Assembly (NCBI GenBank): GCA_964649665.1 | Contig: CAZYPU010000002.1 | Location: 5,855 to 69,854 of the forward strand | Origin: an uncultured Planctomycetia bacterium | Lineage (GTDB): Bacteria > Omnitrophota > Gorgyraeia > JABMRN01 > RBG-13-46-9 | Direction of reading: 5' to 3' | Length of the DNA: 64,000 nt | Shown: piece by piece, positions 11,230-63,013 of the stretch | Position numbering within the stretch: position 1 is the first letter of the stretch | Layout of the letters: each line of letters starts with the position of its first letter | Program-made: the position numbers and the translations under genes | The notes under the pieces: generated by a model | What the model was told of the DNA's origin: nothing | What the model saw: the letters and a program-made list of their open reading frames with translations, nothing else | The model's database searches: none

Positions 11230-11439
11230 ATAAGCCTCCAGCGGGTGCTTGCCAGCGGCTCACACAAAAAATTGTGTAAAGCTATCTCCCTTGAATTTCT
11301 GCAATTTGTGAATCGGAAGGTGTGAATTATCGAGTATCTTATTTTCCGTAGAGCTATCCCTATCATGTCCAATTCACAAATTGCGAAATTCTACGGTCAA
11401 GAGCATTCGCCGCTTGGCAAGCACCCACTGGAGGCTTAT
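11230..11439 (+). repeat. family-1a nested-hairpin repeat, copy A
   Basis: Outer arms ATAAGCCTCCAGCGGGTGCTTGCCAGCGGC / GCCGCTTGGCAAGCACCCACTGGAGGCTTAT. Inner arms GAATTTCTGCAATTTGTGAATCGG / CCAATTCACAAATTGCGAAATTC. Starts 15 nt after the treT stop. Confidence 0.75.
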
Positions 11440-11470
11440 TTAACGAAAGTCTGTCTCGGCAGATATCAGC

Positions 11471-11666
11471 AATAAGGGCCTGTAGGGGTGGGCGATTGAG
11501 GCGAATAGATTCGACGTAGAATTTCATAATTTGCGAGCGGAATATAGAGATATGGCACTTTATGACATACCTGATTATCCGCTTGCAAATTGTAGAAATT
11601 CGAGGAGAAGATTTTGGCTCAATGTTTTGAGCTGAGCCTCAATCGCCCACCTCTACAGGCCTTATT
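11471..11666 (-). repeat. family-1a nested-hairpin repeat, copy B (opposite orientation)
   Basis: Outer arms AATAAGGGCCTGTAGGGGTGGGCGATTGAGGC / GCCTCAATCGCCCACCTCTACAGGCCTTATT. Its reverse complement carries the same junction motifs as copy A. Confidence 0.75.
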
Positions 11667-13058: not shown

Positions 13059-13170
13059 GTCATTCTGAGCCCCGCCCTTCGCTAGCGCTCAGGATAAACT
13101 CCGCGGGGCGAAGAATCTTAACGATAAGATCCTTCGTCGGGCTGACTTCGTCAGCCCTCCTCAGGATGAC
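13059..13170. repeat. family-2 multi-hairpin repeat, long variant
   Basis: GTCATTCTGAG...CTCAGGATGAC outer stem encloses CCCCGC/GCGGGG, CGAAGAATCTT/AAGATCCTTCG and GCTGAC-TTC-GTCAGC hairpins. Lies between leuC and leuD. Confidence 0.7.
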
Positions 13171-13185
13171 AGGCAAAAAAAGAAC

Positions 13186-14721: not shown

Positions 14722-14805
14722 GTCATTGCGAGCCCCGCGAAGCGGGGCGAAGCAATCTCTTAGTATGAGATTGCTTCGTCGGCACTTCGTGCCTCCTCGC
14801 AATGA
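14722..14805. repeat. family-2 three-hairpin repeat, canonical 84-bp copy
   Basis: GTCATTGCGAG-[CCCCGC GAAG CGGGGC]-[GAAGCAATCTC ttagtat GAGATTGCTTC]-[GGCAC TTC GTGCC]-CTCGCAATGA. Starts 5 nt after the leuB stop. Confidence 0.8.
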
Positions 14806-14822
14806 TATATGGAGTACGTAAA

Positions 14823-15875
14823 ATGCTAAAGAAAAAAGACGAGTATAACGTAGCAATAATGGGCGCTACCGGTGCTGTCGGCGCGCAGTTTCTGTCCCTT
14901 CTCGAGGAGAGGCATTTTCCCGTTGCAGAACTCCGTCTCCTTGCCTCTGAAAGATCTAAGGGTAAGAAGATTAAGTTTAAGGGCAAGGCCTGTCCGGTAG
15001 AGATTCTTACTCACAGATCGTTCAAGGGCGTAGACATCATCCTATCAAGCGCGGGCGCCGCAAGAAGCCTTGAGTTTTTGCCGAGCGCCGTGAAAGCGGG
15101 AGCGGTATGCGTGGATAATTCAAGCGCCTTCAGGATGCAAAAAGAGGTTCCTCTCGTTGTTCCGGAGGTAAACCCGCAAAGGACAGAGGGCCACAAAGGC
15201 ATTATCGCAAACCCGAACTGCTCAACCATACAGGCAGTCGTTGCGTTGTGGCCGCTGCATAAAAAAGCGAAAATTAAAAGGATAGTTGCCTCGACCTATC
15301 AGTCGGTTTCCGGCGCCGGCCAGAAAAAGATTCTGGAGCTGGAAAAACAGGTGGAGGCAATAGATAAAGTCGTTGATAACTGGGTAATCGGAAGCCACGG
15401 CGTGGATAAATTCCTGATAAAGGAATTTCCGTATCAGACAGCCTTTAACCTGATTCCGCAGATAGACGTATTCCTGGATAACGCTTACACCAAGGAAGAG
15501 ATGAAACTTGTGAACGAAACCCGCAAAATCATGGAAGACCCAAACATCAGGATTACCTCGACCTGCATTCGCGTGCCGGTTTTCTTTGCGCACTCGGAGA
15601 GCATAAACATAGAGACCGAGAAGAAACTCAAGCCCGATGAAGCGAGAAAAATCCTTGCAAAGGCGCCGGGCGTCGTTTTGATAGACGATCCTAAAAAGGA
15701 GAAATACCCCATGCCCCTGGACGCCGAAGGAAAAAATGAGGTTTTCGTCGGACGTATCCGCGAGGACGAATCCGTGGAAAACGGCCTTAACCTCTGGGTT
15801 GTAAGCGACAACCTCCGAAAAGGCGCGGCCCTTAACGCGATTCAGATAGCGGAGCTGCTTATAAAGCATGCGTAA
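14823..15875 (+). CDS. asd: aspartate-semialdehyde dehydrogenase
   Basis: VAIMGATGAVG Rossmann motif and active-site NPNCSTI. ATG at 14823 has GGAG 8 nt upstream. The track start at 14802 lies inside the repeat arm. Confidence 0.85.
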   Translation: MLKKKDEYNVAIMGATGAVGAQFLSLLEERHFPVAELRLLASERSKGKKIKFKGKACPVEILTHRSFKGVDIILSSAGAARSLEFLPSAVKAGAVCVDNSSAFRMQKEVPLVVPEVNPQRTEGHKGIIANPNCSTIQAVVALWPLHKKAKIKRIVASTYQSVSGAGQKKILELEKQVEAIDKVVDNWVIGSHGVDKFLIKEFPYQTAFNLIPQIDVFLDNAYTKEEMKLVNETRKIMEDPNIRITSTCIRVPVFFAHSESINIETEKKLKPDEARKILAKAPGVVLIDDPKKEKYPMPLDAEGKNEVFVGRIREDESVENGLNLWVVSDNLRKGAALNAIQIAELLIKHA

Positions 15876-16686
15876 CATCCGCCTCACCGTCGCCTACGAC
15901 GGCACTTGCTACGCCGGCTGGCAGATCCAGAAAAACGCAAAGACCATCCAGGGCGAAATCGAAAAAGCGTTAAAAAAAATACTTAAAACAAAAGTCCGTC
16001 TGATCGGCGCCGGCCGCACCGACTCCGGAGTCCACGCCCGCGCGCAGGTTGCGAATTTTAGTATTCGTCATTGCGAGGAGGCGCGAAGCGCCAACGAAGC
16101 AATCTCCTATGAGATTGCTTCGCTCCCTTTGGTCGCTCGCAATGACAGAAAAAAATCAGTGCACGGGCTTCAAGCAGCGTTAAACTCAAGCCTTCCATGT
16201 GATATTCGTATCATTGAGGTAAAAGAGGCGCCGCTTGAATTTCATTCGCGGTTTGACGCAAGGGGCAAGTTTTACAGGTATACGATCCTCAACAGCCCGA
16301 TAAACGATCCCTTCCTCCGGGATTATTGCCATAGAGTTTCTTGTAAGTTAAATCTCCCGCTGATGCGAAAAGAGGCGGCCGTTTTACTCGGGCGGCACGA
16401 CTTTAAATCCTTCCAGGCAAAGAGCGCCTCATCGCCCATAAAAGATACGCGAAGGACGATAAAGAAAATAACTTTTAAAAAAGAAAAAGATCTCATCCAT
16501 ATCAATATCGAAGCCAACGGTTTCCTGTACAACATGGTTCGTAACATCATAGGCACCCTCATCGAGATCGGAAGGGGATACCTTCCCGAAGGCAGCATGC
16601 GAAAGATCCTCTCCTCTAAAGACCGCCGGAAAGCCGGCCCTACCGCCCCTGCCAAAGGCCTTACCCTGATAAAGGTTAAATACTAA
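15868..16686 (+). CDS. truA: tRNA pseudouridine(38-40) synthase TruA, carrying an in-frame repeat insertion
   Basis: AGRTDSGVHA catalytic motif and FYRYTI. The segment IRHCEEARSANEAISYEIASLPLVARND is encoded by a family-2 repeat. Confidence 0.85.
   Translation: MRNIRLTVAYDGTCYAGWQIQKNAKTIQGEIEKALKKILKTKVRLIGAGRTDSGVHARAQVANFSIRHCEEARSANEAISYEIASLPLVARNDRKKSVHGLQAALNSSLPCDIRIIEVKEAPLEFHSRFDARGKFYRYTILNSPINDPFLRDYCHRVSCKLNLPLMRKEAAVLLGRHDFKSFQAKSASSPIKDTRRTIKKITFKKEKDLIHINIEANGFLYNMVRNIIGTLIEIGRGYLPEGSMRKILSSKDRRKAGPTAPAKGLTLIKVKY
16067..16146. repeat. family-2 repeat copy inside the truA coding sequence
   Basis: GTCATTGCGAG...CGAAGCAATCTC ctat GAGATTGCTTCG...CTCGCAATGAC read directly. The reading frame is preserved across it. 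Confidence 0.8.
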
Positions 16687-16719: not shown

Positions 16720-16895
16720 AATATCTTGTGTAAATTCGATGGGCATCTGAGAGCGGGAGTCCTTTCGGCGAATTTTGCATGCGACTGGCAATTTATGTGT
16801 TCAAGATTTGAAACGCTAAATTGCTACAGCCGCGCTGCAAAATTTTTCGCCTCAAGGACATCCCGCTCTCAGATGCCCTATAGATACAAGATATT
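16720..16895. repeat. family-1b nested-hairpin repeat, copy D
   Basis: AATATCTTGT/ACAAGATATT, GGGCATCTGAGAGCGGGA/TCCCGCTCTCAGATGCCC and GGCGAATTTTGCA/TGCAAAATTTTTCGCC nested arms. Starts 34 nt after the truA stop. Confidence 0.7.
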
Positions 16896-17045: not shown

Positions 17046-18086
17046 ATGGATATAGAGAATTTAATACTTAGCGCGTTAAAGAAAAAAAAGCGGCTAAAAG
17101 CGTCCGAGATAATAAAATCTACGGAATTTTCGCGCGCTTATGTCAATAAGTTTTTTCAAAAATTAAGAAATGATGGGAAAATTATTCTGCTCGGCAAAGC
17201 CAATAGGGCGCATTACATACTTGCGACCGGGGAGGGGCTGAGACAGGCCAAAAGCGGCCTATTGAAAGTTACCCGCATGCTGCGGAATAGGGGCCTTGCA
17301 GAAGACGTCGTTCTCCGTGACATAAAGGAAAAAACGGGTATTTTTTCCGGCATACCCGGGAACATTTCGGATATTCTGGGTTATGCTTTCTCTGAAATGC
17401 TCAATAACGCTATTGAGCATTCCAGGTCCAACACTATCAGAATAGTTATGCAAAAACAGAAAGAAAGTATTGTATTTCGCGTTATCGATAAAGGGGTCGG
17501 TGTCTTTAACAACATAATGCGGAAAAAAAAGTTAAAGAATGAAATGGAGGCCATTCAGGATCTTATTAAGGGCAAAGAGACAACCGCGCCGGACGTTCAC
17601 ACAGGCGAAGGCATCTTTTTTACCTCAAAGGCAGCCGACATGCTGGTCATACGGAGCGGGCACAAAAAACTATCTTTCAACAATTTTTTACGGGATATCT
17701 TTATTAATGACGTAAAAGATACCGCCGGGTCGAAAATATTTTTTTCGATCAATATAAATTCGAAAAAGAAGCTCGATCATATTTTTAAACAATACACGGA
17801 CGAATCATTTGAATTCAGCAAAACAGAAGTAAACGTGAGGCTGTATAAGACGGTAAATGAATATATTTCCCGTTCGCAGGCAAGGAGGATTTTAAGCGGG
17901 CTGGGTAAATTCAAAAGAGTTTTATTGGATTTCAGGGGCGTAAAAACGGTGGGGCAGGGGTTTGCCGACGAGATATTTCGCGTATGGAAATCGCAGCACC
18001 CCGGCGTTTCCATTACCGCGCAAAATGCAAATGAGAATATAGAGTTCATGCTGCAGAGAGCCGGCGCCCCGTTTAAAAAGAAATAG
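17046..18086 (+). CDS. wHTH / GHKL-type ATPase (RsbW/SpoIIAB-like) / STAS-like (DUF4325-type) fusion protein
   Basis: N-terminal wHTH-like segment (LKASEIIKSTEFSRAYVNKFFQKLRNDGKI). N-box EMLNNAIEH, G1 DKGVGV and G2 GEGIFF. C-terminal LLDFRGVKTVGQGFADEIF resembles DUF4325/STAS. Confidence 0.6.
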   Translation: MDIENLILSALKKKKRLKASEIIKSTEFSRAYVNKFFQKLRNDGKIILLGKANRAHYILATGEGLRQAKSGLLKVTRMLRNRGLAEDVVLRDIKEKTGIFSGIPGNISDILGYAFSEMLNNAIEHSRSNTIRIVMQKQKESIVFRVIDKGVGVFNNIMRKKKLKNEMEAIQDLIKGKETTAPDVHTGEGIFFTSKAADMLVIRSGHKKLSFNNFLRDIFINDVKDTAGSKIFFSININSKKKLDHIFKQYTDESFEFSKTEVNVRLYKTVNEYISRSQARRILSGLGKFKRVLLDFRGVKTVGQGFADEIFRVWKSQHPGVSITAQNANENIEFMLQRAGAPFKKK

Positions 18087-23772: not shown

Positions 23773-23776
23773 GCCT

Positions 23777-23937
23777 GTCATCCTGAGGAGGCCTGTCCCC
23801 CACCCTACGGGTCGTAGACCCGGAGGGAAAGGCCGACGACCGAAGGAAGTCCCGCATACCACAATGAACAATATAGGCCATGCGGGACGAAGGATCTTAA
23901 CGTAGAGATTCTTCGCCCCTTCGGGGCTCAGAATGAC
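23777..23937. repeat. family-2 composite repeat (GTCATCCTGAG...CTCAGAATGAC)
   Basis: Outer stem plus GTCCCGCAT/ATGCGGGAC, GAAGGATCTT/AGATTCTTCG and CCCC-TTCG-GGGG hairpins. Carries the 28-nt module ACCCTACGGGTCGTAGACCCGGAGGGAA. Confidence 0.7.
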
Positions 23938-23974
23938 AAAGTGGGGAAACTCCTCGCAAGAAAGAGGGTAATGC

Positions 23975-29349: not shown

Positions 29350-29607
29350 ATAGGCCTCCGGGGGATGCCTGCGGCGGCTCACACAAAAAATTGTGTAAAG
29401 CTCTCTCCGTAGAATTTCTGCGCTGTGCTCGTTGGATTTAAGGAAATACAAAAGAAATAGCCGATGGTTTTCTTGTCCGCCGAAGCCTTGGCGTAGGCGG
29501 AAACCATCGGCTATTTCTTCGAACTAGACCTGTATACCAACTGCGCAAGCGCGAAATTCTATTGTCGAGAGCATTCGCCGCCTGGCAGGCATCCCCCGGA
29601 GGCCTAT
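29350..29607 (+). repeat. family-1a nested-hairpin repeat, copy C
   Basis: Outer arms ATAGGCCTCCGGGGGATGCCTGCGGCGGC / GCCGCCTGGCAGGCATCCCCCGGAGGCCTAT. Shares GGCTCACACAAAAAATTGTGTAAAGCT, GAATTTCTGC, GCGAAATTCTA and GAGCATTCGCCGC with copy A. Confidence 0.75.
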
Positions 29608-29682
29608 TCTTACTGTACATTTGAAAGCTAATCCGACAGATCTAACCAGGTTAGAATGCCGTCTATATCGACACCTACGGAC

Positions 29683-29951
29683 GGGAGAGAGTCTGTGTGA
29701 AGAGCCTTAAAAATTAAGGCGTAGTTTTATGCTTTTTGAGGTTTCCTTTTGTCACATGTTATGAGACAAAAAGGATTGCAGTTGTCTGAGGCCCACACCG
29801 AGCGTATCACCAGCAAGGCGTGTGTGGGCCGAGTTCTGCAATCCCCTCAAAAAGCTTAAAACTACACCGACCCCCACACCAATTACTATTGGTGTGGGGG
29901 ATAATTTTTCTTATCAGCTTTAGCAGAAGGCTCTCACACAGGCTCTCTCCC
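29683..29951. repeat. large multi-branch inverted-repeat element (copy F)
   Basis: GGGAGAGAGTCTGTGTGAAGAGCC / GGCTCTCACACAGGCTCTCTCCC closes at least four internal hairpins (for example GGCGTAGTTTTATGCTTTTTGAGG / CCTCAAAAAGCTTAAAACTACACC; CCCCCACACCAAT-tact-ATTGGTGTGGGGG). Confidence 0.65.
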
Positions 29952-30008
29952 GGCCGGAGGTAAGTGTGTGAGCCGCTTGGAAAGCATACCCGGAGGTTTA
30001 TTTTATGC

Positions 30009-33254: not shown

Positions 33255-34142
33255 ATGGAAGACGCGATAAAGAAATCGAGCGTTTTGATAGAGGCTTTAC
33301 CTTACATAAAGAAATTTTTTCATAAGATATTCGTGATCAAGTTCGGCGGCTCGGCGCTCGCCGATAAAAAAATAAGGAACAGCGTGCTTGAGGATATCGT
33401 GTTCATGAATTACGCCGGCATGAAGCCGGTGCTTGTCCACGGCGGAGGGCCTTTTATAAACGAAAAACTCAAAGACGCGAAGAAAAAGATCAGGTTTGTC
33501 GATGGCCTCAGGGTTACCGACAAAAAGACGATGGAAATCGTAGACAGCGCCCTTACGGAAGTAAACGCTGTCCTGGTGGATGAGATAAAAAAGATGGGTT
33601 CGGAAGCTTTCGGGCTCAGCGGAAAAGAGAACAAGCTTATAATTGCGAAAAAGATAAAGCACAGGGAGGACATCGGTTTCGCAGGCGCCGTTGAATCCGT
33701 GGATACGACAGTGCTCGGGAAACTTATAGACGATAATATTATTCCGGTGATCTCACCGGTAGCAATGGGCGCTGACGGCGAGCTTTATAACGTAAACGCC
33801 GACGAAGCGGCAAGCCGTATTGCCATGGCCCTTAAGGCCGAAAAGCTTTTTATCCTTACCAACGTAATGGGTATTATGAAGGAGCAGGGTGATCCCGGGA
33901 CGCTTTATCGTTCTTTAAGCCTTTCGGATGCGGAGGTGCTGATGAAAACGAAGATCATATCCGAAGGGATGATCCCGAAGGCAAGGGCGTGCACCAACGC
34001 CCTGGAAGACAAGGTAAGGAAAGCGCACATTATCGATGGCAATCTGTCTCACGCGCTTCTTCTCGAAATATTTACGGATAAAGGGATAGGTACGGAAATA
34101 ATTAAGCTGGGAAGGCGAACGAAAGCGACGGAAGGGTTATGA
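33255..34142 (+). CDS. argB: acetylglutamate kinase
   Basis: VIKFGGSAL, VLVHGGGP and NVNADEAA motifs. Confidence 0.9.
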   Translation: MEDAIKKSSVLIEALPYIKKFFHKIFVIKFGGSALADKKIRNSVLEDIVFMNYAGMKPVLVHGGGPFINEKLKDAKKKIRFVDGLRVTDKKTMEIVDSALTEVNAVLVDEIKKMGSEAFGLSGKENKLIIAKKIKHREDIGFAGAVESVDTTVLGKLIDDNIIPVISPVAMGADGELYNVNADEAASRIAMALKAEKLFILTNVMGIMKEQGDPGTLYRSLSLSDAEVLMKTKIISEGMIPKARACTNALEDKVRKAHIIDGNLSHALLLEIFTDKGIGTEIIKLGRRTKATEGL

Positions 34143-35323
34143 ACGCCAGAAACGTTATAGAGTTATACGACAAATACGTGATGCGGACATACACAAGGGT
34201 GCCGCTTGTTCTTGAGAAGGCGAAGGGCGCTCTTCTAGAGGATATCGAAGGAAAAAAATACCTGGATTTTTTTCCGGGATGGGCGGTAAGCGGGATAGGG
34301 CATTGCCACCCGAGCGTTGTGGCGGCAATTTCAAAGCAGGCGAAAAAGCTTATTCACGTTTCCAATAATTATTACAGCGCGCTTCAGGGGGCGCTTGCCG
34401 AAAAGATTATCGGGCATTCTTTTCCGGGAAAGGTGTTTTTCTGCAATTCCGGGGCAGAAGCCAACGAGGGAGCCGTTAAACTCGCCAGAAAATACGGCCA
34501 TAAAAGGGGAAGATACGAAGTTATAACTATGGATAAGTCCTTTCACGGAAGGACGCTCGCGATGATAGCGGCTACCGGGCAGGAGAAGGTTAAGCTCGGT
34601 TTTGAGCCTTTACCCGAAGGCTTCAGACATGTTCCGTTCGGCGACGCGCTCGCCCTGGAAAATGCCGTAACGAAGAAAACCGCGGCGGTAATGATGGAGC
34701 TTATCCAGTGCGAGGGCGGTATTAATATCGCGAAGGCCGAATACGTAAGAAAGGTGCGGGAAATCTGCGATAAAAACGATATAGTGCTTATTTTTGACGA
34801 GGTCCAGACAGGCATGGGTAGAACGGGCAAGATGTTCTGCTATCAAAATTATGGAATAAAGCCCGACGTGATTACGCTCGCGAAATCACTCGGCGGCGGG
34901 CTTCCCATAGGCGCCATTGTGGCAAGTTCCGAATTCGCCGATGTGCTGGGTCCCGGTTCACACGCCTCGACCTTCGGTGGTAGTCCCCTTGCCTCGGCCG
35001 CCGCGCTCGGGGTATTTAAAGCCATTGAAAAAGATAAATTGCTGCGAAACGCCGTAAAGCAGGGCAGGTATCTGGCGGGAAAGCTCAAAGCCCTTAAAAA
35101 GAAACACAATGTTATAAAAGGAGTGAGGGGCATTGCCCTGACGATCGGAGTTGAATTAACCATAGACGGCCAGGCGATATACGAGAAATGCCTCGAGAAG
35201 GGGCTTCTTATAAACTGCACGCAGAAAAATGTTTTAAGAATAATGCCCTCGCTTACTGTTACTAAGGCCGAGATCGATAAGGCGATGGCTATTTTGGAAA
35301 GCGTCATTGCGAGGGCGCGATAG
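34139..35323 (+). CDS. argD: acetylornithine aminotransferase (class III)
   Basis: NSGAEANEGA, LIFDEVQTGMGRTGK and TLAKSLGGGLP motifs. The last 6 codons and the stop lie inside a family-2 repeat. Confidence 0.9.
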   Translation: MNARNVIELYDKYVMRTYTRVPLVLEKAKGALLEDIEGKKYLDFFPGWAVSGIGHCHPSVVAAISKQAKKLIHVSNNYYSALQGALAEKIIGHSFPGKVFFCNSGAEANEGAVKLARKYGHKRGRYEVITMDKSFHGRTLAMIAATGQEKVKLGFEPLPEGFRHVPFGDALALENAVTKKTAAVMMELIQCEGGINIAKAEYVRKVREICDKNDIVLIFDEVQTGMGRTGKMFCYQNYGIKPDVITLAKSLGGGLPIGAIVASSEFADVLGPGSHASTFGGSPLASAAALGVFKAIEKDKLLRNAVKQGRYLAGKLKALKKKHNVIKGVRGIALTIGVELTIDGQAIYEKCLEKGLLINCTQKNVLRIMPSLTVTKAEIDKAMAILESVIARAR

Positions 35324-35382
35324 CGCCCGAAGCAATCCCAAACGATGAGATTGCTTCGGCGCCTTTGGCGCCTCGCAATGAC
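35303..35382. repeat. family-2 three-hairpin repeat overlapping the argD 3' end
   Basis: GTCATTGCGAG-[GGCGC gatag CGCCC]-[GAAGCAATC...GAGATTGCTTC]-[GGCGCC ttt GGCGCC]-TCGCAATGAC. The argD TAG stop is in the first loop. Confidence 0.8.
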
Positions 35383-35399
35383 AAGATGGGAATAAACAA

Positions 35400-36332
35400 A
35401 TGAAAATGACCAAAAGGAACCTGATATCTATAACAGACTTAACAAAAACCGAAATAGAAAACCTTTTTAAAACGGCAAAGGTCTTTAAAAAGGATCCCTT
35501 TTTAAAGAAAAGTGCGCTCGATTCAAAATCGATAGCGCTCGTATTCCAGAAGCCCTCCAACAGGACAAGGGTTTCTTTCGAGGTGGGCATGGTGGACCTC
35601 GGCGGGCACGCTACGTATCTGGGCCCGGAAGAGCTTGAATTAGGCGTCAGGGAATCCGTCAAGGACGTGGCGAGGGTTCTCTCAAGATATCTGGACGGCA
35701 TCGTGGCAAGGACCTTTAAGCACAAGGACCTTCTTGACATGGCGAAGTTTTCCTCTATTCCGGTTATAAACGGGCTGACGGATCTTCTTCATCCGTGTCA
35801 GGGCCTAAGCGACCTTTTTACGATTGAGGAAAAATTCGGCAAGAAAAAAATTAAAATATCATTTGTGGGAGACGGAAATAATGTCCTGAACTCGCTCCTT
35901 TTGGGCGCTGGCACGCTCGGAAGAGACATATTTGTCGCGACGCCGAAAGGGCACGGGCCAAAGGCCGAAATTCTGAAAGAGGCGAAAAAAATCGCCGCCG
36001 CGAACAAATCACTTGTGGAACTAACGAACGATCCCGGGGAATGCGTAAGGGGGGCGGACGTAATTTACACCGATGTATGGGTCAGTATGGGCCAGGAAAA
36101 AGAAAAAGAAAACAGGATAAAAACGTTCAGGGGATTTCAGGTAAACAAAGAGCTGGTTTCGCGCGCTAAAAAGGGTGTTTTAGTCATGCATTGCCTTCCC
36201 GCGCACAGGGGCGAAGAGATTACCGACGAGGTTATCGATGGAGAGAGTTCCATTGTTTACGAGCAGGCGGAAAACAGGCTCCACGTGCAGAAGGCGATAT
36301 TGTTAATGTTTCTGAACCAGGTTCAGACGTAA
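35400..36332 (+). CDS. argF: ornithine carbamoyltransferase
   Basis: FQKPSNRTRVSFE, HPCQ and HCLPAHRGEE motifs. Confidence 0.9.
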   Translation: MKMTKRNLISITDLTKTEIENLFKTAKVFKKDPFLKKSALDSKSIALVFQKPSNRTRVSFEVGMVDLGGHATYLGPEELELGVRESVKDVARVLSRYLDGIVARTFKHKDLLDMAKFSSIPVINGLTDLLHPCQGLSDLFTIEEKFGKKKIKISFVGDGNNVLNSLLLGAGTLGRDIFVATPKGHGPKAEILKEAKKIAAANKSLVELTNDPGECVRGADVIYTDVWVSMGQEKEKENRIKTFRGFQVNKELVSRAKKGVLVMHCLPAHRGEEITDEVIDGESSIVYEQAENRLHVQKAILLMFLNQVQT

Positions 36333-36377: not shown

Positions 36378-37559
36378 ATGAGTAAAAAAGTGGTGTTAGC
36401 CTATTCCGGCGGGTTGGATACCTCGGTTGCCGTAAGGTGGCTCAAGGAAAAAGGGTTCGAGGTTATCTGCTATCTGGCGAATGTGGGTCAGGGCAAGGAT
36501 ATTGCCGCTTCGAAAACGAGGGCAAAAAAAGCCGGCGCGAAGAAACTTATAGTGGGCGACTTAGAGAGGGAATTCGTCGAAGATTTTGTCTGGCCGAGCC
36601 TGAAGGCGAACGCGGTATATGAATCAAAATATTTTCTCGCTACGGCCCTTTCAAGGCCGCTTATCGCGAAAAAACTTGTTGAGGCGGCTCATAAAGAAGG
36701 CGCAAAGTACGTCGCCCACGGATGCACGGGCAAGGGCAATGACCAGGTAAGATTTGAGGTTACGATAGGGGCGCTTGACCCCTCCATCAGCGTGATAGCG
36801 CCCGTAAGGGAGTGGGAACTTGCCACCAGGGAAGCGGAGATAAGATACGCCGAGGTTCACGGCATACCGCTGGACGTTACGAAGAAAAAGCCATACAGTA
36901 TAGACAGAAATATCTGGGGCGTGAGCATAGAAAGCGGAAAGCTCGAAGACCCGTGGTACGAACCGGCCGAAGACGCCTATCAGCTGACGGGGCCGGTTGA
37001 GAAATCGCCGGACAAACCCTGTTACCTTAAGATAGAATTCAAAGGCGGCATCCCCGGAAAGATAAACGGGAAATCTTTAGGGGCCGTCGCGCTCATAAAG
37101 AAGCTGAACGAAATAGGCGCGAGGCATTCGATAGGCAGAACCGATTTGGTCGAGGATAGATTGGTCGGGATCAAATCAAGGGAAGTCTATGAGGCGCCGG
37201 CGGCGAGCATACTGCTCGAAGCGCACAGGGCGCTGGAGGCGCTCGTGCTGGACAGGGAGACGATTTATTTCAAGGAAATCGTCTCCCTGAAATACGCAAG
37301 GCTCATATACGACGGTTTATGGTATACGCCGCTTAAGGAAGCGATAGATAAATTCGTGGATTATACGCAGAAAGTCGTTGATGGGACGGTAAATGTGAAG
37401 CTCTACAAGGGAAGCGTTTCGGCCCCCGGCAGAAAATCGCCCAAATCCCTTTATAATAGGGAGCTTGCGACTTACGGCGAGGGCGACAAGTTCGACCAGT
37501 CCATGGCGAAGGGCTTTATCGAGCTTTTCGGGCTGCCGTATAGGAAGCGAAAAACGTAA
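36378..37559 (+). CDS. argG: argininosuccinate synthase
   Basis: VVLAYSGGLDTS P-loop-like motif. ATG at 36378 has better SD spacing than the one at 36372. Confidence 0.9.
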   Translation: MSKKVVLAYSGGLDTSVAVRWLKEKGFEVICYLANVGQGKDIAASKTRAKKAGAKKLIVGDLEREFVEDFVWPSLKANAVYESKYFLATALSRPLIAKKLVEAAHKEGAKYVAHGCTGKGNDQVRFEVTIGALDPSISVIAPVREWELATREAEIRYAEVHGIPLDVTKKKPYSIDRNIWGVSIESGKLEDPWYEPAEDAYQLTGPVEKSPDKPCYLKIEFKGGIPGKINGKSLGAVALIKKLNEIGARHSIGRTDLVEDRLVGIKSREVYEAPAASILLEAHRALEALVLDRETIYFKEIVSLKYARLIYDGLWYTPLKEAIDKFVDYTQKVVDGTVNVKLYKGSVSAPGRKSPKSLYNRELATYGEGDKFDQSMAKGFIELFGLPYRKRKT

Positions 37560-57310: not shown

Positions 57311-57497
57311 AAGTAAACCGGGATCCTGTCCGCAGGTGTCAGCTGTCAGCGGGCGCCCTTCCGGCGAATTTTGTGGCTCGCTGCAATTGGTGTGGGGAAG
57401 CTTTCACCACTCAATTGCGACGCTCACGCACAAAATTTTTCGCCTCCAGGGCATCCCGCCGACAGCTGCCACCAAAATTTGTAATCCCGGTTTACTT
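57311..57497. repeat. family-1b nested-hairpin repeat, copy E
   Basis: AAGTAAACCGGGAT/ATCCCGGTTTACTT, CAGCTGTCAGCGGG/CCCGCCGACAGCTG and GGCGAATTTTGTG/CACAAAATTTTTCGCC nested arms. Starts 2 nt after the etfA stop. Confidence 0.7.
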
Positions 57498-62693: not shown

Positions 62694-62829
62694 GTCATCC
62701 TGAGGCGCCCTGAAAGGGTGCCGTCTCCGACCCTACGGGTCGTAGACCCGGAGGGAAGGATCTTTCGTTAAGATTCTTCGGCACTGCGTGCCTTAGAATG
62801 ACAAGGGTGAAGGGCTCGCTCAGGATGAC
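62694..62829. repeat. family-2 composite repeat
   Basis: GTCATCCTGAG...CTCAGGATGAC with an internal TTAGAATGAC arm and the same 28-nt module ACCCTACGGGTCGTAGACCCGGAGGGAA (62730-62757) seen at 23802-23829. Confidence 0.7.
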
Positions 62830-62877
62830 ACAAGGAGAAAATAGGATAATGTAAAATATTGTGGGCACTTTCAACAT

Positions 62878-63013
62878 GTCATTGCGAGGTCTGCGAAGCA
62901 GACCGAAGCAATCTTTTCGTTTGAGATTGCTTCCTCCTTCGCCACATTGCTTACGCGTGTGGCTTCGGAGGACAAGTCGGCCACTATCGCTTGTAGGGCG
63001 GCCTCGCAATGAC
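62878..63013. repeat. family-2 repeat, extended copy
   Basis: GTCATTGCGAG-[GTCTGC gaa GCAGAC]-[CGAAGCAATCT...GAGATTGCTTC]-extra hairpins-CTCGCAATGAC. Confidence 0.75.

Follow-up and report, generated by a model that had tools for sequence, protein, structure and literature searches.

A CGTC-tagged palindromic repeat lying in frame within the truA gene of an uncultivated Omnitrophota bacterium

The closest described relatives of the element reported here are the CGTC-tagged repetitive extragenic palindromic (REP) sequences. According to a 2013 survey, this superfamily carries a CGTC or TGTC tag (CCTC being allowed), has stems starting with AT, occurs mostly as head-to-head dimers and has no dedicated transposase (Di Nocera, De Gregorio & Rocco 2013, PMC3733652). 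Each unit is described there as a plain hairpin that has a stem of 8-9 bp, a loop of 4-5 nt and a consensus CCA tail, with other loop lengths in Bradyrhizobium CGTC-1; the units sit just downstream of open reading frames (ORFs), between co-directional genes, and their termini sometimes supply stop codons (PMC3733652). The same survey reports that intragenic dimers of CGTC and GTAG REPs encode 20-30 residues, with tRNA pseudouridine synthase genes among the targets, and equates Rickettsia conorii CGTC-1 and CGTC-4, which bear the CGTC tag, with the Rickettsia palindromic elements (RPEs) RPE-6 and RPE-4, respectively (PMC3733652). RPEs have been reviewed (PMC10969869), and R. conorii truB carries RPE-1. 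Here we describe a palindromic element with an 80-nt core that lies in frame within truA, the gene for tRNA pseudouridine38-40 synthase, in a 64,000-nt stretch of contig CAZYPU010000002.1 from an uncultured bacterium of the phylum Omnitrophota; this whole stretch is referred to as the window. The phenomenon itself, REP/RPE-type palindromes translated within housekeeping genes, is already known from Rickettsia and other bacteria. What is new, relative to the published descriptions as far as they are drawn on here, is the phylum, together with the architecture of the element and its spread across phyla.

In the reading that we consider probable, a CGTC-type palindrome has inserted into a loop of TruA, is translated and is tolerated as a passenger. 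The proposed course of events is as follows. A non-autonomous palindromic repeat would have entered the truA segment that encodes the beta3-alpha2 loop. This repeat would be a head-to-head dimer-like element of 80-82 nt, of the CGTC-tagged REP/RPE type, the halves of which pair with each other in a nested, cloverleaf-like fold. With a net gain of 84 nt and with truA using one of four stop-free frames, the insert would be translated and would add 28 residues to the loop, leaving the catalytic core untouched and truA still under purifying selection. The insert would thus be a tolerated passenger with a probably neutral peptide, and the intragenic copies of the element would be the few that selection left in place. 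The features of the gene and of the insert are as follows.

15868-16686, + strand: truA (tRNA pseudouridine38-40 synthase), intact ORF of 272 codons plus stop, with an 8-nt overlap with the asd stop codon
16063-16146, + strand: net in-frame insertion relative to orthologues, 28 codons (84 nt), I66-D93, peptide IRHCEEARSANEAISYEIASLPLVARND, delimited by protein alignments, codon view and low model confidence
16066-16147, no strand assigned: palindromic element, consisting of the 80-nt core at 16067-16146, the tag base C at 16066 (making CGTC) and the counterpart A at 16147
16067-16077, no strand assigned: left arm of the outer stem, GTCATTGCGAG, pairing with 16136-16146
16078-16094, no strand assigned: variable side hairpin 1, GGCGC-GAA-GCGCC, including GCGAAGC, from the fold
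16095-16122, no strand assigned: inner stem-loop, CGAAGCAATCTC - CTAT - GAGATTGCTTCG, from the fold
16123-16135, no strand assigned: right spacer CTCCCTTTGGTCG, poorly paired in the truA copy; with the adjoining boxes it makes up the widespread 34-nt right half
16136-16146, no strand assigned: right arm of the outer stem, CTCGCAATGAC, from the fold

The truA gene closes the row leuC-leuD-leuB-asd-truA. Its product matches Pfam PF01416 (6.7e-41) and the TruA equivalog TIGR00071, with 194.8 bits against a cutoff of 142.85 and with model positions 1-228 of 228 covered. The catalytic Asp lies in the GRTD motif, the columns R50-T51-D52 of which are invariant, and all family-invariant and nearly invariant residues are kept. 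An identical protein is found on four contigs from ENA, JGI and NCBI sources, and the named homologues among the best matches are proteins of Omnitrophota metagenome-assembled genomes (MAGs). Homology to the TruA proteins of the PDB is broken into residues 4-66 and 104-272 in phmmer searches. The initial annotation of the window had claimed that the ORF stays open through a complete copy of a repeat family (its family 2) at 16067-16146, translated as the peptide listed above, and the 272-codon ORF confirms it. It had put the added length at about 27 residues; the in-frame addition stands, and the figure is corrected to 28 codons against orthologues. Its landmark spacing, 44 residues here against about 18 in Escherichia coli TruA, was also borne out: F64 and L109 are separated by 44 residues, and F66 and L85 of the E. 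coli enzyme by 18 (1dj0 numbering). When the window gene is compared with the second insert-bearing truA described below, codon positions 1, 2 and 3 outside the insert are 76, 82 and 51% identical, the pattern left by purifying selection on a protein. ORF integrity and conservation likewise suggest that the insert is translated and that the enzyme is active.

The element occupies 80 nt, or 82 nt with the tag bases, neither of which is a multiple of three. In the truA copy an 11-bp outer stem encloses 58 nt of nested structure, which contains a 12-bp inner stem. For this copy the predicted folding energy of the RNA is -46.1 kcal/mol (z -7.4) and that of the DNA is -32.5 kcal/mol (z -8.3). Four of its six reading frames are free of stop codons because the conserved boxes contain none.

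An AlphaFold2 model of the window TruA, built from 81 aligned sequences, has a mean predicted local distance difference test (pLDDT) value of 89, with 216 residues at 90 or above, and superimposes on E. coli TruA (2nqp, 1dj0) with a template modelling (TM) score of 0.84-0.86 and a root-mean-square deviation of 2.1 A. The insert falls between strand beta3 (56-66) and helix alpha2 (94-108). Its pLDDT blocks are 53, 45 and 65, next to a confident core, and a short helix is predicted at residues 72-76. The insert-bearing loop, which varies in length among orthologues, is predicted to be peripheral and flexible, which agrees with the placement in a loop that had been suggested from the sequence.

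For the orthologue comparison we used the best 60 homologues of TruA, which come without exception from metagenomes of Omnitrophota type and are 56-78% identical. The insert is missing from 58 of them, which have a short loop of about 16-18 residues at this place (e.g., NFKTKKNFPPKKLQAALN), and no repeat-free orthologue has an equally long segment there; the expected lineage specificity of the insertion thus held. The two carriers are the window protein (P0001) and P0002, encoded at locus L002, which is about 70% identical to the window TruA outside the insert and has the element at exactly the same codon. The junctions of both genes can be written AGT-RTT-C | GTCATT...AATGAC | RGA-AAA-AAA. 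The P0002 insertion is present on three contigs, each from a different sample, and the window organism occurs in one of these samples as well. Loci L002 and L003 encode an identical insert-bearing TruA, and their Asd proteins are only 98% identical, so that at least two strains have the insertion. Within the orthologous insertion of L002, 7 of 18 positions differ in side hairpin 1.

In a neighbor-joining tree of TruA (insert columns left out, 200 bootstraps), P0001 and P0002 are not sisters. They are paired in 1.5% of the bootstraps, while P0002 groups with the insert-free P0029 to the exclusion of P0001 in 97% and P0001 groups with the insert-free P0003 to the exclusion of P0002 in 96.5%. Gene order agrees with the tree on this separation: a downstream HATPase_c_2/DUF4325 gene is common to the window and to the insert-free P0004 and P0007 loci, and AbiEi/AbiEii genes follow P0002. 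The neighboring Asd gives no resolution, as all pairs are 85-89% identical. A single event therefore does not account for this distribution. The element may have been gained once, long ago, and then cleanly lost several times; it may have been gained twice at this site; or the segment may have passed from one co-occurring relative to another. In both insert-bearing genes the element is preceded by AGT, at a place where relatives have AAR, ACC or TTC, and this shared junction favors a single origin, towards which we lean with some reserve. No recombination tract was found around the insert between the window and L002: synonymous sites differ up to the element, and segment-wise identities give no mosaic. 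Within the insert, all 22 residues shared by the window and L002 use identical codons, compared with 98 of 170 elsewhere, and the differences, at 6 of 28 residues in the left side hairpin and loop, are all non-synonymous. A separate observation concerns the short loop of P0006 (L210:301-1035), where ACC-ATTGC-ACG...TGC-GCAAC-GGT resembles the outer stem of the element, GTC-ATTGC-GAG...CTC-GCAAT-GAC; this skeleton, statistically non-significant as a hairpin (z -1.3), may be a relic of a deleted copy.

The element belongs to a widespread family. Its exact 34-nt right half is present in at least 76 metagenome contigs, representing 59 distinct contexts with a contig G+C content of 0.34 to 0.67, among which the left spacers and central loops vary widely. 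A pattern of the three conserved boxes matches at least 120 loci in a set of species-representative genomes. Among the hosts are Bradyrhizobium, Sphingomonas and other Alphaproteobacteria, including a Rickettsiales MAG and 'Candidatus Tisiphia' (L107, L146), as well as Patescibacteria, Chloroflexota, Zixibacteria, Ignavibacteriota, Bacteroidales, Nostoc, Planctomycetales, Spirochaetaceae, Firmicutes and Binatia. The three boxes are identical in genomes of at least 10 phyla (L085-L204), Cyanobacteria and Bacteroidota included. In Alphaproteobacteria most copies form a simple long hairpin, CGTCATTGCGAGCGAAGCGAAGCAATCCAG ... CTGGATTGCTTCGCTTCGCTCGCAATGACG. In a set of 128 distinct full copies, the position preceding the core is occupied by C (68%) or T (28%) and the one following it by G (66%) or A (31%), so that the element begins with CGTC or TGTC and ends with GACG or GACA in a symmetric CGTC...GACG arrangement. 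Core lengths range from 69 to 126 nt, and their counts modulo 3 (44/38/47 in 129 distinct copies) show no preference for multiples of three. Most copies have three or four of six frames open, because the conserved boxes are without stops in two of three frames. Of the spacers with a length of 12 nt or more, about a quarter have a better fold than shuffled sequences, and several contain GCGAAGC; we rejected side hairpins as a universal feature of the family on the basis of this fraction. Rfam gave no match at gathering score in the window or on the element in eight loci from other phyla, only chance-level matches with E>1. A full-text literature search for the boxes and typical peptides returned primers or no match. 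A search with a 40-mer peptide for other insert-bearing proteins gave no candidates, and an exhaustive phmmer search with a 30-mer gave three weak matches.

The element shares several features with the CGTC REPs. It has the CGTC/TGTC tag, AT as the first stem bases (CGTC-ATTGCGAG), a symmetric head-to-head layout and no target-site duplication; its copies lie just 3' of ORFs, between co-directional genes, its termini supply stop codons in some cases, and its intragenic copies encode peptides of 20-30 residues. The differences are in the stem, the loop, the tail and the hosts. The 8-nt ATTGCGAG directly follows the tag, but it pairs with CTCGCAAT at the opposite end of the element and not with a segment 4-5 nt away. 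Pairing within a half is limited to 5 bp (ATTGC/GCAAT), and the stable fold pairs the halves with each other, enclosing 58 nt instead of a loop of 4-5 nt. Many alphaproteobacterial copies read GCAAT-CCAG, which fits the CCA tail, whereas Omnitrophota copies read GCAATCTC or GCAATCCC, without a CCA tail. The phyla named in the 2013 survey did not include Omnitrophota, Patescibacteria, Chloroflexi and others found here (PMC3733652). We file the element as CGTC-tagged and dimer-like and, going by the descriptions of the four known families, as not one of them.

RPEs resemble the element in being small multi-copy palindromes, some of which lie in frame in unrelated housekeeping genes at fold-compatible positions, with tRNA-modification genes among the targets; for the element, such fold-compatible in-frame insertions were found in truA, TrmD and CinA. 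The resemblance to RPEs, pointed out in the initial annotation, is strengthened by the tag, which the element has in common with the REP superfamily to which RPE-4 and RPE-6 of R. conorii belong. RPEs differ from the element in host phylum and, going by the peptides compared, in sequence: the published R. conorii CGTC-1 and CGTC-4 peptides (e.g., SFLRKQES...RFRGND and VIPWLDHGI) are unlike that of the element. The boxes of the element are also conserved across many phyla and not in one genus, and only a minority of its copies are intragenic. Intragenic MITEs (transposable elements of the miniature inverted-repeat type) such as ERIC/RU and BOX are likewise short, structured, non-autonomous and occasionally fused in frame to ORFs (PMC2759123, PMC10969869). 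MITEs have terminal inverted repeats and a target-site duplication; our element has terminal inverted 11-mers, but no target-site duplication above the permutation expectation in 128 copies (k=2-6, offsets 0-2). GTAG REPs and the REP doublets (REPINs) mobilized by REP-associated tyrosine transposases (RAYTs) have GTAG at one end, and the element ends with CGTC/GACG. In yeast mitochondrial byps and in the gap of phage T4 gene 60, GC-rich hairpin inserts lie in coding sequence and the protein stays functional; the ribosome skips these inserts, which may be out of frame. In contrast, the confirmed intragenic copies of the element keep the frame and are stop-free, and matching take-off and landing codons are not evident.

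Intragenic copies are a minority, one of four in the window and about 10% of the 59 contexts, and most copies are intergenic. In six of the 59 contexts the copy falls in an ORF that has Pfam support and at least 60 codons on either side, and in three of them the homology itself is interrupted (truA of P0002, TrmD of L025 and CinA of L069). The TrmD case can be described as follows.

L025:238-1071: TrmD gene containing, in frame and in reverse orientation, a complete copy of the element at residues about 93-118

In the PDB alignment of this protein the query runs from residue 90 to 119 while the target runs from 98 to 102. In the linker between its domains, this TrmD has a further insertion that is unrelated to the element, about 30 residues long and composed of AAATTGG tandem repeats. 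The remaining three contexts are ORFs of a DNA methylase, a PMT_2 glycosyltransferase and an NTP_transf_5 protein. As a control, 20 long open frames that span copies in GC-rich genomes (chiefly those of Bradyrhizobium and its relatives) were examined; none gave a Pfam hit (0/20), and they were discarded as spurious. Every confirmed intragenic copy keeps the frame without stop codons, and both orientations and several frames are used. The use of both orientations and of several frames, together with the lack of a modulo-3 bias, indicates that the element is not built for ORF-preserving insertion. In-frame copies are best read as survivors in permissive loops, with selection removing the disruptive ones. 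The initial annotation had proposed that the enzyme tolerates a surface-loop insertion or that the element is selected for ORF-preserving insertion. The former is supported; the latter is not, given the even length distribution, the mostly intergenic location and the four open frames of the truA copy.

The same loop also carries palindromes of other kinds. It is 3 to 13 residues longer in the relatives P0005, P0009, P0010, P0022, P0029 and P0036, and all eight orthologues with an expanded loop that we examined encode it by a strong hairpin, compared with none of four standard-loop orthologues. Some ascertainment bias is contained in this 8/8 vs 0/4, since expanded-loop orthologues were picked partly by loop length. 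The palindromes are unrelated in sequence; the window and L002, with the family element, complete the eight.

L205:501-1268 (P0022): loop hairpin with a 25-bp perfect stem, -52.9 kcal/mol
L207:167-904 (P0009): loop hairpin with a 20-bp perfect stem
L008:3001-3768 (P0005): loop hairpin with a 25-bp perfect stem
L006:62-823 (P0029) and L007:308-1057 (P0010): homologous loop hairpins with 11-12 bp stems and a compensatory change from C-G to G-C
L206:501-1265 (P0036): loop hairpin of 8 bp with an inner hairpin

The standard-loop relatives L005, L208, L209 and L210 have no significant hairpin at this place (z -1.3 to +1.1). Perfect or near-perfect hairpins of 12-15 bp also occur in conserved coding sequence of the window, in argG (37253-37289), in the ornithine carbamoyltransferase (OTCase) gene (35482-35508) and in the HATPase_c_2/DUF4325 gene (17392-17425). 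By chance, 64 kb would contain about 0.003 perfect 14-bp stems. The argG hairpin has a 14-bp stem and aligns to Thermus ArgG without a gap, and the palindrome is therefore written into conserved codons and is not an insertion. A genome-wide process that makes or perfects palindromes, either template switching or small mobile hairpins, may be at work, and the truA loop may then be a place that tolerates its products. That the loop segment is a true hotspot of palindromic DNA in Omnitrophota, which the CGTC-type element entered twice independently at the same codon or where it was passed between lineages, appears to us rather unlikely.

Several observations weigh against a translated and tolerated passenger. 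An insertion shared, down to the codon, by two non-sister lineages requires an extra event; the lack of any synonymous change in the insert is unexpected for an old, neutrally evolving passenger; and translation and activity are argued from the integrity of the ORF and its conservation. The codon identity of the insert points to recent arrival, to homogenisation with other copies or to constraint at the nucleic-acid level. As the boxes are conserved across phyla, we relate it to whatever keeps the family in being, whether recent spread, homogenisation between copies or a mobilising activity that recognises them, and not to selection on the protein; it also precludes dating of the insertion. 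This bears on a possible exaptation, in which the 28-residue peptide has gained a function in TruA, e.g., an RNA or protein contact, and is kept by selection on the protein. Retention of the insert in two diverged species and the predicted short helix would fit such a role, but the clustering of exclusively non-synonymous differences in the variable side hairpin speaks for constraint or turnover at the nucleotide level, the model confidence is low and closely related lineages do without the insert; we hold exaptation to be very improbable. The same codon identity would be expected if the hairpin and not the peptide matters, that is, if an RNA or DNA hairpin is selected (for mRNA processing or stability, translational pausing or a role at the DNA level), or if the site is targeted by palindromes, the element being one of several interchangeable hairpins. 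The unrelated palindromes in all eight expanded loops, the compensatory change in L006/L007 and the presence of one element at one codon in two non-sister lineages also speak in its favor. However, the four close orthologues with standard loops lack the hairpin, which is therefore not a conserved requirement of truA and accompanies gain of length. The perfect hairpins in other conserved genes of the window, in argG without any change in length, suggest a genome-wide mutational process over a truA-specific function, no terminator or promoter signal was found at the element in truA, and the eight loops were subject to the bias mentioned above. A functional hairpin or a targeted site is thus an unlikely explanation, though the least unlikely of the rival ones.

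TruA is dispensable in laboratory E. coli, and a 28-residue insert of low model confidence could disturb folding or dimerisation; truA might then be disabled or decaying, the ORF being open only since too little time has elapsed. Yet the ORF is intact in two species in which third codon positions have diverged well beyond the first and second, the invariant and nearly invariant residues are retained, the TIGR00071 score is above the equivalog cutoff, and the loop of relatives tolerates insertions of 3-13 residues, all of which makes decay quite improbable. An assembly artefact, with reads mis-joined at the element, is the least probable of all and can be regarded as extremely unlikely. Short-read metagenome assemblers can mis-join at repeats, and this element is multi-copy, but the sequences on its two sides are halves of a single gene and in frame with each other. 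The possibility of chimerism had been raised at the outset, and the identical protein on four contigs from three sources speaks against it, as does the insertion at the same codon in an independent species, on three contigs from three samples. Furthermore, the element is shorter than a typical read, so that reads would span it. Insertion of a CGTC-type palindrome into a permissive loop, with translation of the insert, thus remains the reading that we prefer.

The window contains four copies of the element, all sharing the nested fold of outer stem, inner stem-loop and side hairpins. The pattern GTCATTGCGAG N8-30 GAAGCAATC has six matches in the window, on both arms of copies, vs none in 100 shuffles. 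The tag of the truA copy is CGTC, and the other copies are as follows.

14722-14806, no strand assigned: sister copy 1, intergenic, 4 nt past the leuB stop and upstream of asd, TGTC tag
35303-35382, no strand assigned: sister copy 3, upstream of the OTCase gene, CGTC tag
62878-63011, no strand assigned: sister copy 4, a long variant whose right spacer holds additional nested hairpins, TGTC tag

Copy 3 gives the ORF of a class-III aminotransferase (34139-35323) its last six codons (VIARAR) and its TAG stop, within 35303-35323. In the right arm of copy 1 an ATG at 14802 creates a spurious extension of the asd ORF; orthologues and gene calls start asd at 14823 (MLKKK...).

Other repeats were observed in the window. 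A second repeat family of the same layout, with boxes GTCATYCTGAG ... GAAGRATCT ... CTCAGRATGAC, lies at 13060-13175, 23773-23940 and 62700-62830; some of its copies have long nested inserts, and it is presumably the family 1 of the initial annotation. A separate long inverted repeat, GGGCATCTGAGAGCGGGA...TCCCGCTCTCAGATGCCC, is located at 16741-16880, directly downstream of truA, and an 85% similar 40-nt segment is found 40 kb off at 57431-57470. The regions 11230-11661 and 29350-29961 have common segments of 48-58 nt with 84-94% identity and several inverted repeats of 23-26 bp, and resemble a composite repeat. The TruA homologue P0034 has a 23-residue C-terminal extension, DPSTPRPLDKLGMIPSDRRESRD, which looks like read-through into another repeat family.

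Discussion of palindromes that encode protein in frame has centered mostly on Rickettsia and some proteobacteria, few in number, and the truA case extends the process to an uncultivated phylum. Such inserts inflate protein lengths, split domain matches and yield thousands of spurious small ORFs in the annotation of metagenomes. The elements supply ready-made loop insertions of 25-30 residues in essential enzymes, here those encoded by truA, trmD and cinA. The palindromes recurring in one TruA loop form a natural series on the origin and movement of transposase-less elements. If the loop segment were a true hotspot, transposase-less palindromes would either be directed to a specific sequence or structure or arise in place through template switching, and palindromes would be a main source of protein loop insertions in Omnitrophota. 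The locus would then offer a testable handle on how CGTC-type repeats move, a question left open by the 2013 survey.

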